Virus record (IMG/VR): IMGVR_UViG_3300049830_000314
DNA: 64,000 bases
Origin: a virus
Lineage: Duplodnaviria; Heunggongvirae; Uroviricota; Caudoviricetes
Strand: one strand, 5' to 3'
The position numbers were made by a program, and so were the translations under genes. Below, piece by piece: positions 6,564-58,472 of the stretch. The notes below the pieces were generated by a model. It was not told where the DNA came from, ran no database searches, and saw nothing but the letters and a program-made list of their open reading frames with translations. Positions within the stretch are counted from its first letter, which is position 1. Each line of letters opens with the position of its first letter.

Positions 6564-6640
6564 TGGCCCTGCCAGTTGGATTTGAACCAACGACCTTTCG
6601 GGTTTCAACCGAACGCTCTATTCCGCTGAGCTATGACAGG
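6564..6640 (-). tRNA. tRNA-Phe (GAA), canonical class I, CCA encoded
   Basis: Reverse complement folds as CCTGTCA/TGGCAGG acceptor, D-arm TAGCTCAGCGGAATAGAGC, anticodon loop TTGAAAC, T-arm GTTGG-TTCAAAT-CCAAC. Confidence 0.8.
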
Positions 6641-6643
6641 ATT

Positions 6644-6721
6644 TGGTGGAGCAGACAGGATTCGAACCTGCGTAGACGCGGGGCTTCAACCCACCGCTAA
6701 AACCGACTCAGCTACCGCTCC
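6644..6721 (-). tRNA. tRNA with anticodon loop TTGAAGC (GAA; Phe-type anticodon), CCA encoded
   Basis: GGAGCGG/CTGCTCC acceptor, anticodon stem GTGGG/CCCGC, T-arm GCAGG-TTCGAAT-CCTGT. This is a second GAA anticodon with a different body. Confidence 0.55.
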
Positions 6722-6735
6722 ATAAGCATATATTT

Positions 6736-6811
6736 TGGTGGGAGCCATCGGACTCGAACCGACTTGGCTGGGGCTTCAACCCAGTGCATAGACCATCTCT
6801 GCCAAACTCCC
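6736..6811 (-). tRNA. tRNA with anticodon loop TTGAAGC (GAA), CCA encoded
   Basis: Acceptor GGGAGTT/GGCTCCC with G-U pairs. Its anticodon stem-loop is nearly identical to the previous gene. Confidence 0.5.
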
Positions 6812-6819
6812 AAAATCAG

Positions 6820-6862
6820 ATAACAAAAAAGACGCCGATACTTTTCTTCGTATCGCGTCTTT
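6820..6862 (-). terminator. rho-independent terminator (minus strand)
   Basis: The hairpin read on the minus strand, AAGACGCGATAC-loop-GTATCGGCGTCTT, is followed there by TTTTTTGTT. It lies between a sigma70-like promoter and the tRNA-Phe cluster. Confidence 0.7.
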
Positions 6863-6990
6863 TGCCTTCGGGGTGGAGTTTGGTGTAAGCACTAAGCTTT
6901 ACAAGTGAACAACTTCGTGTTACTTGTCTCGCAGCCCCGAAGGGCCGGTAAAGCTCATATCTAGAATCAGTGTGCTTAACTTCATGATTA

Positions 6991-7045
6991 CTTCATTATC
7001 TCCGATGTATCTACTGTTTGTCAACTATATTTTGAGGATTTTTTG
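6991..7045 (-). promoter_or_regulatory. sigma70-like promoter TTGACA-17-GATAAT (minus strand) with the TTTTGAGGA box abutting the -35
   Basis: Plus strand shows attatc at 6995-7000 and tgtcaa at 7018-7023 with a 17-nt spacer. Transcription would run toward the hairpin and terminator at 6985-6820. Confidence 0.5.
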
Positions 7046-7319
7046 GATTATTCAACTTTTTCAAAAGCTGAATAGTGTCAGTGTGCGCGAGCTTCTTCTT
7101 GGTTTTACCAACCTTGAATGCAATTAAATATCTGTCCATCCATCCCAACGACAGTTCTTTTCTATCATGCTTTACATTGTAGCCACAAACAAAACAACTT
7201 ATTTCCAACCCCGAAGTGTGAATAAAATGTCCACAACTATCAGTGTGCCACTGTTCGGGGTTATTAAGAAGTCTAAGAATTTCTGTAGTAATTTCTTTCA
7301 TTACAATATAATACCTCAA
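7011..7319 (-). CDS. hypothetical protein; the 3' end overlaps the promoter above
   Basis: 102-aa ORF. Confidence 0.3.
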   Translation of the reverse strand: MRYYIVMKEITTEILRLLNNPEQWHTDSCGHFIHTSGLEISCFVCGYNVKHDRKELSLGWMDRYLIAFKVGKTKKKLAHTDTIQLLKKLNNPKNPQNIVDKQ

Positions 7320-7320
7320 A

Positions 7321-7632
7321 TTAATCTTGTGTTTGCGTTTCGCGCTTAATCATCTCTCTAAATAGCTTGACTACTGAGCGCGAAGCGCTAATAGAAATAA
7401 CTAAAAATGAAAGCAACACGCTTAGCATGAGACTATCATTCCAGGAAGCATATGCCACATGAAGCCTTGTACCAAAATTCATTAAAATACCATCAAAGCT
7501 TCTCAGTAACTCGCCGTATATAAATACAGACCAGAATACGTGAATCACAATGTTCCAAACAGTCTGAAAAAACTTTTTCATATACTTATTATACATGAAA
7601 ACGAATCGGGCGAAATAACGAAAATTACCCAC
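7321..7632 (-). CDS. hypothetical membrane protein
   Basis: 103 aa with two hydrophobic helices. Confidence 0.4.
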   Translation of the reverse strand: MGNFRYFARFVFMYNKYMKKFFQTVWNIVIHVFWSVFIYGELLRSFDGILMNFGTRLHVAYASWNDSLMLSVLLSFLVISISASRSVVKLFREMIKRETQTQD

Positions 7633-7660
7633 CGACGCTACTTGCCCGATTCGAATTGTA

Positions 7661-57050: not shown

Positions 57051-57647
57051 TTGTATAACCAAAACATCATGAAAGCATTTGATACTCTCAATATTACAAC
57101 TGGTCATGCTCACGAAATCGCAGCACTTGGCTATCAAGCCGTTGGCGTCTATCTTCGTTCTGACCGCACCACCCTTGAAGAAATTCAAGAATTACAGTCT
57201 GTTGGAATCAAGATTTTCAGCATTTGGGAGAAAGGTTATCCAACTGCTCGGAAATACTTCACCGCCGCACAAGGCGCTAAAGATGCTGCTGCCGCTCTGC
57301 TTTTCGCCAAAAAGATTAAACAACCGCTCGGAACTCAAATCTTTGCGTGCGTTGACTACGACGCAAACTGGAAAAAAGATGGTGCTGCTATCACAACATA
57401 CTTTGACGCATTTCACCACGTTATTAGAGCTGGTGGCTACTTAGCATCAGTTTATGGCTCTGGTGTTGTGTGCGCCCATTTAGTTAGCGCTGGATATGCA
57501 CACTCTGGATTCCTTGCTCAATCTACTGGCTGGGAGGGTTTCAACGATTACAAATCCAAAGCTGCTATTGTCCAAGGTGCTACTGCAACTTTATTGCATT
57601 TTGACATTGACTACGATACTATTGTAGACGAATCTGTCTGCTGGTAA
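57051..57647 (+). CDS. glycoside-hydrolase-like protein (GH25/DUF1906-like), possible lysin
   Basis: 198 aa; AHEIAALGYQAVGVYL, IFACVDYD and GGYLASVYGSG resemble DUF1906/GH25-like segments. Plus strand. Confidence 0.4.
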   Translation: MYNQNIMKAFDTLNITTGHAHEIAALGYQAVGVYLRSDRTTLEEIQELQSVGIKIFSIWEKGYPTARKYFTAAQGAKDAAAALLFAKKIKQPLGTQIFACVDYDANWKKDGAAITTYFDAFHHVIRAGGYLASVYGSGVVCAHLVSAGYAHSGFLAQSTGWEGFNDYKSKAAIVQGATATLLHFDIDYDTIVDESVCW

Positions 57648-57650
57648 AAT

Positions 57651-57721
57651 TGGTGGAACTAATGGGGAGTCGAACCCATATTTTGACTCCCAGGTCTCAT
57701 CCCCACAAGAAATTAATCTTG
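57651..57721 (-). other. tRNA-like element (T-arm/CCA 3' end plus a perfect 8-bp hairpin CCACAAGA-TTAATT-TCTTGTGG); not a canonical cloverleaf
   Basis: Plus strand reads tgg-t-ggaacta-atggg-gagtcgaa-ccc. Confidence 0.3.
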
Positions 57722-57800
57722 TGGAAACGACGGGAATCGAACCGCTCTCCCTGCCGGGATAATACCACATTTAGTCCCATAAATTTATGATTCGTTTACC
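57722..57800 (-). other. tRNA-like element, irregular
   Basis: tgg-a-aacgacg-ggaatcgaacc 3' signature; no clean acceptor pairing found. Confidence 0.3.
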
Positions 57801-57866
57801 CGCGACGATTCTGGGCATGATAGCTAATAAATTAGCGGACGGCTTCTCTTACTTCATGTCCAAAGT

Positions 57867-57943
57867 TGGTCGGGATGACTGGATTCGAACCAGCGACCTT
57901 ATCGCCCCAAACGATACGCGATACCAAGCTACGCTACATCCCG
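57867..57943 (-). tRNA. tRNA-Pro (UGG)
   Basis: C1:G72 (CGGGATG/CATCCCG), anticodon stem TATCG/CGATA with loop TTTGGGG, variable region AGGTC, T-arm GCTGG-TTCGAAT-CCAGT, A73-CCA. Confidence 0.75.
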
Positions 57944-57948
57944 AAAAA

Positions 57949-58026
57949 TGGTCAGAGTGACTGGATTTGAACCAGCATGATGTCCTTTCTCCCAGAAAGG
58001 CGACTTAGCCATTAGTCCACACCCTG
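57949..58026 (-). tRNA. tRNA-Pro (GGG)
   Basis: C1:G72 (CAGGGTG/CACTCTG), anticodon stem CCTTT/AAAGG with loop CTGGGAG, T-arm GCTGG-TTCAAAT-CCAGT, A73-CCA. Confidence 0.7.
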
Positions 58027-58110
58027 ATAAAACGGCTAACTGAACAGTTCCAAAACTGACAGCGAGATACTATTTAAAGCGCTATCTCATTATGCCGTGC
58101 GCTTCCAAAC

Positions 58111-58341
58111 TTACTTTTCGCATTCTTCGACAGTAAGTATGCCTTTAAATGCTGGTGGTTCTCCAGGAGAACCACACTTCCACTCTACTTCGCCATTTTC
58201 CCATTTATGGTCTTTATTTAAAAGACTTGCAATAGTAACCAATGGCAGTAAAGTGCCTTCGTGTTCAACAGAAACTGTAATTTTCATGACATCTCTGTTA
58301 TACACAAACTGGCGGGTGCAGAGAGATTCGAACTCTCGCAA
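58111..58341 (-). CDS. hypothetical small protein
   Basis: 76-aa ORF between tRNA genes. Confidence 0.3.
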   Translation of the reverse strand: MREFESLCTRQFVYNRDVMKITVSVEHEGTLLPLVTIASLLNKDHKWENGEVEWKCGSPGEPPAFKGILTVEECEK

Positions 58342-58384
58342 TGAAGTTTTGGAGACCTACTGGCATCAACCTACGCTTACACCC
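58310..58384 (-). tRNA. tRNA, anticodon not resolved
   Basis: GGGTGTA/TGCACCC acceptor, T-arm GAGAG-TTCGAAT-CTCTC, G73-CCA. Irregular anticodon arm. Confidence 0.45.
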
Positions 58385-58393
58385 ATTTTGTCT

Positions 58394-58472
58394 TTGCAGG
58401 AGCACCCAGACTCGAACTGAGAACCATCGGATTTGGAGTCACGCTGCTCTACCAATTGAGCTATACTCCTGC
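58394..58472 (-). tRNA. atypical tRNA: canonical D-arm (TAGCTCAATTGGTAGAGC), acceptor region extendable to 9 bp, no CCA
   Basis: GCAGGAG(TA)/(TG)CTCCTGC acceptor, T-arm CTCAG-TTCGAGT-CTGGG. The anticodon arm could not be folded canonically. Confidence 0.4.

Follow-up and report, generated by a model that had tools for sequence, protein, structure and literature searches.

The 64,000-nt stretch analysed here, which we call the window throughout, is the IMG/VR virus record IMGVR_UViG_3300049830_000314 (Caudoviricetes). Between positions 6564 and 58470 it carries 27 transfer RNA (tRNA) or tRNA-like genes, all on the minus strand: 3 for Phe, 7 for Leu, 4 for Glu plus 1 tRNA-like gene, 3 for Tyr plus a remnant, 2 for His, 4 for Pro, 2 for Trp, and one element embedded in a GOLLD RNA. 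The subject of this report is how these genes are grouped by amino acid, and what the promoters and short open reading frames (ORFs) standing ahead of several of the groups may do. A preliminary description of the same DNA, made from its letters, had listed many of the genes and missed the organising principle, which we take to be that each amino acid has an operon of its own, headed by a leader peptide with cognate codons. Positions are collected in Table 1.

tRNA genes grouped by amino acid

ARAGORN at its default settings returns 24 tRNA-type genes and one "tmRNA", minus strand throughout, and three further genes come in at the 95% threshold or with introns allowed, the intron-split Leu gene being the one detected with introns allowed. 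The tmRNA call at 57721-58106 is rejected, as it spans two Pro tRNAs and has no Rfam tmRNA match at E ≤ 1. With the Rfam tRNA model RF00005, 22 of the 27 genes reach the gathering threshold of 29 bits; Tyr1, Tyr2, Pro(CGG) and Trp1 (27.7 bits) fall below it. Sorting by isotype is evident from neighbouring genes, 17 of 26 adjacent pairs being alike, a count that none of 200,000 label shuffles reaches (shuffle maximum 11). Within clusters most neighbouring genes are 3-23 nt apart, with gaps of up to about 95 nt among the Glu genes.

Nine anticodons recur, each in two or three genes. Copies that share an anticodon are 54-72% identical and differ at positions 32, 37 and 38, while different isotypes are about 49-70% identical; the three Phe copies score 62-72% against one another, and the three Tyr genes, with variable regions of 11-13 nt, G1:C72, A73 and CCA, score 62-69%. 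The preliminary description had reported redundant same-anticodon copies with divergent bodies, which was correct and understated. ARAGORN bears out its three GAA genes for Phe at 6564-6811, as well as UUC twice and UGG twice, to which CUC, UAG, GAG, UAA and GUG are added as duplicated anticodons. Its two GUA Tyr genes at 45601-45775 are right as to anticodon and long variable regions and short in number, there being really three (45511-45775) plus a 3' remnant. Folding by ARAGORN and Rfam does not turn the set into ordinary, unique isoacceptors, so the original observation stands.

Phage tRNA regions of the T4/T5 type, those of phiPsa374 and KaOmega, and those of huge phages (PMC7162821) resemble the window in having dense, co-oriented, CCA-encoding genes with homing endonucleases interspersed. 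The phiPsa374 and KaOmega arrays are mixed in isotype with about one gene per amino acid, whereas the clusters of the window are of a single amino acid, contain 2-7 genes with repeated anticodons, and have their own promoter and leader. Literature searches found no description of phages that group their tRNA genes by amino acid into separate operons in which anticodons recur.

The window has a G+C content of about 41% and nearly all its genes on one strand. We take it to belong to a large phage with a genome of 161 kb or more, and one of its ORFs is 100% identical to a protein of a 161,220-bp JGI contig. The large-phage identity is suggested by context, namely a PHROGs match to the phage protein family phrog_33734, the GOLLD RNA, the homing endonucleases, and a homologue of the ValRS-like gene in huge phage LR745206. 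Megablast of window positions 1-25000 against GenBank phages gave no nucleotide match, and no close relative was found in IMG/VR, where the Thg1 homologues are at most 50% identical, mostly lack nearby tRNAs and show no same-amino-acid clusters like those of the window, and where a query with the GluRS-like protein had no match. Exact tRNA and leader pattern searches returned phiPsa374 itself alone, and the His-leader pattern was not found in GTDB genomes. Four related phages were reached via homologues of the Thg1-like and ValRS-like proteins: Logan SRR23617308 (L104 and L115), ENA ERZ761597 (L025 and L105), SRR31843399 (L117) and ERR3478706 (L118). They have a common gene order, with Trp, Pro, His, Thg1-like and Tyr on one side and Glu, Leu, ValRS-like and Phe on the other. 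Their clusters keep place and amino acid and are almost entirely isotype-pure, with varying copy numbers; Leu genes, for instance, number 9 in L104 and at least 13 in L105, where short-arm and long-arm forms are both present. Alignments point to more tRNA-Tyr and U1:A72-type tRNA-His genes in the relatives that ARAGORN does not call, and because these escaped it the relatives' clusters are larger than listed.

CCA is encoded in 23 of the 27 genes, the four without it being 20922-20992, 34774-34848, 56946-57023 and 58396-58470, and in the first and last of these the anticodon loop or stem is abnormal too. The C1:G72 pair is present in all four Pro tRNAs, as the preliminary description had it, and A73 as well. 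Trp(CCA) carries G73, and A73 with Leu-type D loops is found in all the Leu tRNAs. Among the two Leu genes with longer variable regions, ARAGORN draws a paired variable arm for Leu(GAG) and not for Leu(UAG). Four further Leu genes have short variable arms and retain A14, A15, G18G19 and A73. Taken together over the window, its relatives and two cultured phages, this short-arm family has a cloverleaf 92% paired with compensatory change in 19 of 20 pairs, a covariation score reached by none of 500 shuffles. In Pseudomonas phage phiPsa374 and Klebsiella phage KaOmega such genes already bear the annotation tRNA-Leu, and since they occur there, the short-arm form is a phage lineage of tRNA-Leu that extends beyond this window. 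Bacterial leucyl-tRNA synthetase does not need the long variable arm. CCA ends, cognate identity elements, stem covariation and dedicated promoters support the view that the clusters hold real, chargeable tRNAs, which was one of the options raised at the outset for the paired isoacceptors.

Table 1. Positions of RNA genes, leader regions and neighbouring protein genes in the window, with related features in other contigs in the last two lines
Feature	Position	Strand	Details	Evidence
tRNA-Phe(GAA), three genes	6564-6640 (C1:G72, G73), 6644-6721, 6736-6811	-	CCA in all	ARAGORN, Rfam
Phe leader	6825-7024	-	promoter TTGACA-18-GATAAT 6995-7024; 21-codon conserved ORF 6920-6985; terminator hairpin and U tract 6825-6863	
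RF1/PrfH-like release-factor fragment, 219 aa	10237-10896	-	GGQ domain and part of PCRF domain	
ValRS-like class I synthetase, 445 aa	12049-13386	-	CP1/editing region of ValRS profile unmatched	
tRNA-Leu(UAA), class II	15277-15563	-	intron in anticodon loop	ARAGORN with introns allowed
tRNA-Leu, short variable arm (class I length)	UAA 16352-16433, CAA 16453-16529, UAG 16533-16607, GAG 16615-16691	-	A73 and CCA	ARAGORN (UAA gene on relaxation)
tRNA-Leu, longer variable regions	UAG 16695-16777, GAG 16783-16870	-		ARAGORN
Candidate Leu attenuator	16905-17111	-	promoter TTGACA-18-TAGAAT 17082-17111; ORF 16962-17060; Leu run 16989-17012; antiterminator segment 16972-16985; terminator 14-16 bp and U6 16905-16941	
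GluRS catalytic domain alone, 302 aa	19958-20866	-	abuts Glu cluster	
tRNA-Glu cluster	CUC 20839-20913, UUC 21086-21163, UUC 21182-21256, CUC 21265-21342	-	tRNA-like gene without anticodon 20922-20992	
Glu leader	21403-21488	-	promoter TTGACA-17-GATAAT 21460-21488; conserved ORF 21403-21450 (MKTTQRFYESSERAL)	
RNA ligase	27761-28480	-		PF09414 E 4e-22; PHROGs RNA ligase
GOLLD RNA	34450-34916	-	tRNA-like domain 34774-34848 (UCA loop, no CCA)	Rfam RF02032, 154.3 bits vs gathering 150
SpoU-family RNA 2'-O-methyltransferase	36189-36707	+		
T4 Rnl1-like ORF, weak	41707-42750			PF09511 E 1e-3
Tyr-type tRNA 3' remnant	45019-45091	-	variable arm, T arm, acceptor 3' strand, ACCA	
tRNA-Tyr(GUA), three genes	45511-45597, 45601-45686, 45691-45775	-		ARAGORN
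Candidate Tyr attenuator	45826-45997	-	promoter TTGATT-17-TATAAT 45969-45997; ORF 45873-45929; Tyr run 45909-45920; antiterminator segment 45888-45895; terminator 45826-45866	
Thg1-like, bacterial type (tRNA 5'-end repair or G-1 addition)	48788-49855	-	between Tyr and His clusters	PF04446 E 3.7e-29; PDB 4KGK E 4.6e-55
tRNA-His cluster	His1 53225-53298; His2 53305-53389 including G-1	-		
His leader	53429-53558	-	promoter TTGATT-17-TATAAT 53530-53558; ORF 53429-53488	
tRNA-Pro	CGG 56249-56326, UGG 56946-57023 (no CCA), UGG 57867-57943, GGG 57949-58026	-		
tRNA-Trp pair	Trp(CCA) 58310-58384 (G73, CCA); Trp-like 58396-58470 (no CCA)	-		Trp(CCA): ARAGORN on relaxation
Trp-like family in relatives	L118 3935-4011; L025 551-627; L115 3303-3376		same family as window 58396-58470	
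tRNA-Tyr / U1:A72-type tRNA-His missed by ARAGORN	L118 ~13490-13581; L025 ~12570-12657; L117 ~4690-4765; L025 ~6360-6435			alignments

Promoters, leader peptides and candidate attenuators

Sigma-70-type promoters score best about 120-210 nt ahead of the Phe, Leu, Glu, Tyr and His clusters; the four top-scoring sites within 6300-21700 match at 11 of 12 positions, and three of them stand before the Phe, Leu and Glu clusters. The interval from promoter to first tRNA contains short ORFs with purine-rich sequences resembling ribosome-binding sites. As a separate observation, the motif TTCCTCAA (usually ATTTTCCTCAAAA) occurs 25 times in the window against 3.3 expected, with 23 of the sites on the minus strand (e.g. 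53545-53552, 45984-45991, 35377-35384, 21496-21503 and 14864-14871). In most cases a TATAAT-like hexamer follows it closely, and the sites precede genes, tRNA clusters and the GOLLD RNA; it looks like a phage-specific promoter element.

Three of the leader peptides contain runs of the amino acid of the tRNAs behind them. The Leu leader peptide, MEINARINKGNTNSNVLLLGLLLLSAADCGVV, has the run LLLGLLLL, written with seven Leu codons that cover all six kinds; the Tyr leader peptide, MKSYYYYTSGVILSNSSF, has YYYY; and the His leader peptide, MEDHHHNTKLNMHVGAAHV, has HHH plus two further His. In a six-frame translation of the whole window, YYYY and the pattern L{3,}.L{3,} each occur once, in the cognate leader, and HHH occurs 21 times, one of them in the His leader. 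As called ORFs the leader peptides are kept in 2 relatives for Leu, 4 for Tyr and 3 for His, with L118 as a fourth that retains the His run region; MKSYYYYTVGVSLYSSF, MESHHHNTQLNMHVGATHVV and METNARINMENANGNAMLLLGLLLLRAADCSV are examples of the versions in relatives. The DNA of the His leader stays at 90-95% identity in L117, L118 and L025, as against 66-84% for its surroundings there.

The Leu terminator has a predicted energy of -29.1 kcal/mol and is followed by U6, and the stem of the Tyr terminator has compensatory changes among five phages. The stalled state was modelled with a ribosome in the codon run and RNA made up to the terminator loop, that is, by folding of a truncated transcript in co-transcriptional style. 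For both Leu and Tyr, the 3' part of the leader ORF is then predicted to pair with the 5' arm of the terminator. The predicted antiterminator state for Leu has an energy of -24.3 kcal/mol (window) or -21.8 kcal/mol (L105). The Tyr duplex is predicted in all five phages at -13.8 to -17.3 kcal/mol, z = -2.0 to -3.8 against shuffles, and its partners change together, UUCUCUCU/AGAGGGAU in one version and CUCUACUC/GAGUAGGG in the other. These Tyr pairings were scored by duplex energies for each sequence, as MAFFT gaps set the antiterminator out of register for counts by alignment column.

We infer ribosome-mediated attenuation at least for the Leu and Tyr operons, and the His operon is probably attenuated as well. 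On balance we favour the reading that the clusters are attenuator-gated operons of backup tRNAs, one per amino acid, in which divergent copies counter tRNA depletion. The order of parts in such an operon would be a sigma-70-type promoter, a leader ORF with a cognate run, the antiterminator and terminator alternatives, and the tRNA genes. With charged cognate tRNA plentiful, the ribosome would reach the leader stop codon and cover the antiterminator segment, the terminator would form, and the array would stay off. With that tRNA scarce, through cleavage by a host anticodon nuclease or depletion during infection, the ribosome would stall in the run, the antiterminator would form and the array would be transcribed, until the new tRNAs restored decoding, relieved the stall and shut the operon off. 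Having several bodies and anticodon-loop contexts for each anticodon would make it likely that some copy escapes a given nuclease or suits the enzymes of a given host. The sorting by isotype would be explained, because each attenuated operon would respond to one amino acid.

In having a promoter-proximal ORF with a regulatory codon run, these leaders are like leuL, hisL, pheL, trpL and the pheM of pheST, and the Leu and Tyr leaders are predicted to have, as leader-peptide attenuators do, mutually exclusive antiterminator and terminator hairpins and a U tract. They are unlike the leuL and hisL type in that the regulated genes would be the cognate tRNAs, not biosynthetic or synthetase genes, and in the phage setting; and because the regulated genes would be tRNAs themselves, the signal would be decoding capacity itself. 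The His leader is unlike classical attenuators also in having no obvious terminator. Literature searches found no description of cognate-codon leader peptides with attenuators before tRNA genes, and if the scheme is true it would be the first attenuation controlling tRNA genes. The leaders would also be compact natural sensor parts for isotype-specific tRNA charging.

Several points weigh against this interpretation. The whole model is built on sequence. Cognate codon runs are found at three of the seven amino-acid clusters, namely Leu, Tyr and His: in the Phe leader, a terminator and alternative pairings are accompanied by only one Phe codon, the cognate codons of the Glu leader (MKTTQRFYESSERAL) are one GAA and one GAG, and no cognate run was found for Trp or Pro. 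No recognisable intrinsic terminator with a U tract is found in the His leader. The Leu antiterminator duplex beats shuffles moderately, with z = -2.1 in the window and -1.0 in L105. The minimum-energy fold of the full-length leader keeps the terminators even when the footprint of the stalled ribosome is masked, and antiterminators showed up only in the folds of truncated transcripts; the model therefore needs kinetic, co-transcriptional folding. Some of the genes make poor tRNAs by score, Tyr1 and Pro(CGG) having no Rfam tRNA match and Trp1 the sub-threshold score given above. The window has no structural genes, and its assignment to a phage is contextual. Finally, in L104 a 61-nt deletion removes the 5' arm of the Leu terminator. 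The same deletion, at about 6500-6520 in L104 against 16942-17000 in the window, also shortens the leader peptide, and it may be a natural constitutive variant.

Remoulded, truncated and tRNA-like genes

The second His gene, His2, had been noted as a GUG tRNA with G-1, C73 and a long variable arm, and so it is, with G-1 at 53389 paired to C73, an encoded CCA, and an arm of 12-13 nt (TGGAGAAATCC) that forms a 3-bp stem by eye. It is 77-80% identical to the long-arm Leu tRNAs of L105 and 54% to His1, and its D arm, variable arm (TGGAGAAATCC) and T arm are common with those Leu tRNAs. It is a body of Leu type that was remoulded into a His tRNA, and its acceptor identity changed as well, A73 having become C73 with G-1 added. 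Alloacceptor remoulding and anticodon shifts have been described (PMC4783518, PMC3923123), and the window has the like in His2, nearer to Leu tRNAs than to any His tRNA, and in short-arm Leu(UAG), with its close match to a Leu(CAG) gene of L105. Unlike the nev-tRNAs of nematodes (PMC3333845), His2 has had its acceptor identity converted along with its anticodon and is in a phage, and because of that conversion faithful charging with His would be expected. No long-arm tRNA-His was found described in literature searches; His2 is a natural one. Short-arm tRNA-Leu, for its part, is a widespread phage lineage.

The other gene of the pair, His1, has U1:A72 and A73 without an encoded G-1, and its counterpart in L115 is at 8615-8689. 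L115 likewise pairs a short U1:A72/A73 His gene lacking G-1 with a 90-nt long-arm His gene having G-1:C73, and among the relatives every C73 His gene encodes G-1 except L118 9181-9256. His1 sits about 3.4 kb upstream of the bacterial-type Thg1-like gene.

The CCA-less element with a UCA loop is the tRNA-like domain of a GOLLD RNA, a described feature, and the Rfam match spans the full length of the model. GOLLD RNAs with an embedded tRNA are known near tRNA islands (PMC12286853, PMC6582537), and there is nothing unusual in the one here lying among tRNA clusters; this known feature accounts for one "non-canonical tRNA" of the preliminary description. A copy of the promoter motif TTCCTCAA is at 35377-35384, and the GOLLD transcript may begin about 450 nt upstream of the Rfam match.

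These genes bear on the suggestion that the set is identity-swapped for recoding, with bodies carrying the anticodon of another amino acid. A Leu-type body does bear a His anticodon, Leu anticodons are found on short-arm bodies, and the GOLLD-embedded domain has a UCA loop. The long-arm His, which is the sole mismatch of body and anticodon, has however exchanged the A73 of Leu for the full His set of C73 and G-1, and the short-arm Leu genes retain their Leu elements. Stop-codon recoding or a suppressor tRNA is rejected, since the UCA element is CCA-less and part of a known RNA and all three stops are in use (36 TAA, 15 TGA and 13 TAG in the window); reassigning a stop changes ORF coverage by small, non-specific amounts. 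Codon usage is ordinary. A recoding set is thus largely refuted, and we leave it next to no chance.

The gene at 20922-20992 has a tetraloop-capped stem in the place of the anticodon arm. The 6-nt anticodon loop noted at the outset is there, as is an extendable acceptor, of 8 bp and without CCA. L105 has the gene too, along with some 80 nt of its 5' leader, whereas the closer relative L104 lacks it; it is best described as a conserved tRNA-like RNA. Over the wider intervals 20915-21085 (minus strand) in the window and 840-1010 in L105, a GUUG tetraloop stem replaces the anticodon arm. The last gene of the set, 58396-58470, belongs to a Trp-like family with a conserved anticodon arm, GCGYGRCUCCAAAUCCGAUGG, in which no 5-bp stem is possible, and the consensus fold of the family has no convincing anticodon stem. 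A short-stem tRNA-Trp reading UGA has been reported (PMC13092985); TGA serves as a stop 15 times in the window.

That anticodon-less tRNA-like genes are conserved, that the same anticodon loops sit on varied bodies, and that some copies are weak by covariance model or CCA-less would all suit decoys or sponges for host anticodon nucleases or tRNA-binding defence proteins, with many copies non-decoding. Decoys would not need an acceptor and discriminator identity that matches the anticodon, and this match holds throughout, even in the remoulded His; compensatory changes maintain the acceptor and T stems; and control by leaders would sense decoding capacity, which decoding tRNAs alone could restore. 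We regard decoys as quite improbable, less so for the poorly scoring copies.

Three fragments with T arm and CCA had been listed, at 45013, 46031 and 57651, and only the first, 45013-45060, proves to be a true tRNA 3' remnant. It lies directly downstream of the PD-(D/E)XK ORF at 45079-45519, and that ORF is missing at the corresponding site of L115, where a Tyr-type gene at 14219-14316 is seemingly intact, with an acceptor and T arm that fold and a remainder that makes no standard cloverleaf. The remnant thus appears to be a fourth Tyr-type tRNA gene truncated beside an endonuclease gene. The second, just upstream of the Tyr promoter, folds no better than shuffles (z = +0.7). It consists of two T-arm-like hairpins and no CCA (46031-46100); over 46030-46110 (minus strand), inspection by eye shows an 8-bp stem, TTAGACTC/GAGTCTAA, that encloses them and a U run after it. 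The third, at 57645-57765, is for the most part a strong hairpin where convergent genes meet (z = -3.7). A search for 5' halves that would complete the orphan T-arm fragments, as in split or intron-containing genes, found none.

Group I introns in the anticodon loop of tRNA-Leu(UAA) are known from cyanobacteria and plastids. The window has one in the same isoacceptor and at the same site, after U34 by eye and by the ARAGORN position: it is 201 nt long (about 15328-15528) and matches Rfam Intron_gpI over 15347-15538 with 55.1 bits, which exceeds the gathering score of that model. Unlike the cyanobacterial and plastid intron it belongs to the Leu operon of a phage and has a free-standing HNH gene for a neighbour. 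The intron-bearing gene is conserved in L104 (7826-8112). The free-standing HNH ORF, 15623-16303, is present in the window and not in L104.

Cluster turnover, neighbouring enzymes and the proposed purpose of the arrays

Alignment with the closest relative gives long blocks of flanking sequence, mostly at 77-85% identity (range 69-97%), that break off at the tRNA clusters; apart from these breaks the synteny holds at 70-92% identity, mostly about 80%. Some tRNA genes exceed their surroundings. Pro(GGG) is 100% identical in L117 amid flanks of 66-84%, short-arm Leu(CAA) is 96% identical in L105, Glu1 and Tyr2 are 97% and 91% identical to counterparts in relatives, and short-arm Leu(UAG) is 94% identical to a Leu(CAG) gene of L105, an anticodon switch. 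Many others, including all three Phe genes, have no match in the relatives above a background of 60-75%. The pattern is that of birth-and-death evolution, with tandem duplication, anticodon switching, change of isotype (Leu body to His), loss of the variable arm and disruption of genes. Identities of 91-100% between diverged phages would mean very strong constraint or exchange between phages, and apparently it is exchange. On this account tRNA genes evolve like a gene family under conflict.

Another account would be neutral churn, in which homing endonucleases, the intron and recombination leave mostly drifting redundancy. The mobile elements it calls for are present, with the HNH ORF, the PD-(D/E)XK ORF beside a truncated tRNA, the group I intron and the orphan T-arm-like hairpins, and the clusters are indeed synteny breakpoints. 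Drift does not predict strong covariation of the cloverleaf, tRNA copies that stay 91-100% identical across phages whose coding flanks are at 66-84%, or clusters whose place, amino acid and leader are kept in five phages, and we judge churn very improbable.

The enzymes among the arrays include an RNA ligase and a second, weak ligase-like ORF (sequence searches of the PDB with both gave no match), the Thg1-like protein, the SpoU methylase and truncated synthetases, and this company fits a conflict over tRNA integrity. The idea that each cluster stands beside its own synthetase was rejected, as the enzyme near Leu is ValRS-like, the formyltransferase is PurN-like, and the sole match is the fragment of glutamyl-tRNA synthetase (GluRS). 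That fragment shares about 28 nt with the last Glu tRNA gene and has no anticodon-binding domain; its architecture is GluQRS-like and its score nearer to GluRS. The ValRS-like protein belongs to a large family of proteins of about 450 amino acids, known from contigs as long as 673 kb and from huge phage LR745206 (635 kb), where no tRNAs were found within 20 kb of the gene. A valyl-tRNA synthetase without proofreading would be error-prone.

For some 50 years the debate on phage tRNAs has been between codon compensation and evasion of tRNA-targeting immunity. If the arrays are tuned to supply and demand with no link to defence, they would be a near-complete tRNA set that supports the phage's own translation, with attenuators fitting output to demand and divergent copies for hosts that differ in synthetases and modification enzymes, the two His types being an example. 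The isoacceptor sets are complete down to tRNAs for rare codons (CTA is 8% of Leu, CCC 9% of Pro), conserved His tRNAs of two designs are found together, one U1:A72/A73 without G-1 and one G-1:C73, and huge phages are known to have many tRNAs and synthetases (PMC7162821). Copy number, however, is not in step with codon frequency, the arrays have RNA ligases and a Thg1-like repair enzyme in their midst, and the bodies turn over fast amid conserved flanks, more like conflict than housekeeping. Most predictions of tuning are common with those of the backup operons, and the selective driver alone differs; we consider tuning unlikely.

For the attenuated backup operons we infer that they serve to make good a depletion of tRNA. 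Published work has phage tRNAs restoring infection in the face of defences that cleave tRNA-Tyr and tRNA-Lys (PMC11555353, PMC11464382), and selection of phage tRNAs for insensitivity to nucleases has been proposed (PMC10264068). A wider claim, which we hold only tentatively, is that this is an inducible, isotype-specific counter-defence in a lineage of large phages, in which leaders sense loss of decoding for one amino acid, as when anticodon nucleases cut host tRNA-Tyr, tRNA-His or tRNA-Leu, a private, diversified operon for that amino acid answers, and the operons act as libraries of fast-evolving cassettes that are exchanged between phages. The regulatory logic, which can be read from the letters, would point to "replace what is missing" as the function of phage tRNAs, and it is directly testable.

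The nearest bacterial parallel is the L-arrays, such as the trn operon of Anabaena (PMC8421152), which likewise contain mobile supernumerary tRNAs with isodecoder redundancy and are induced when translation is impaired (PMC8421152). They differ in being single arrays of up to 43 genes that are not described as sorted by amino acid, and PMC8421152 has no mention of an attenuator, leader peptide or terminator. Already known, then, are tRNA-rich huge phages, L-arrays, leader-peptide attenuators, tRNA remoulding and GOLLD by tRNA islands.

Other genes of the window are of less certain connection to the arrays. A 424-amino-acid ORF at 51007-52281 had no homologues besides itself. The RF1/PrfH-like fragment is conserved in relatives beside a PurN-like formyltransferase and a Clp_N protein. 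Past the last tRNA gene, a Ser/Thr-kinase-like protein (637 amino acids, weak Pfam match) and an adjacent PP2C phosphatase are followed by a guanylate kinase (59554-62579, minus strand), a block that is syntenic in three relatives.

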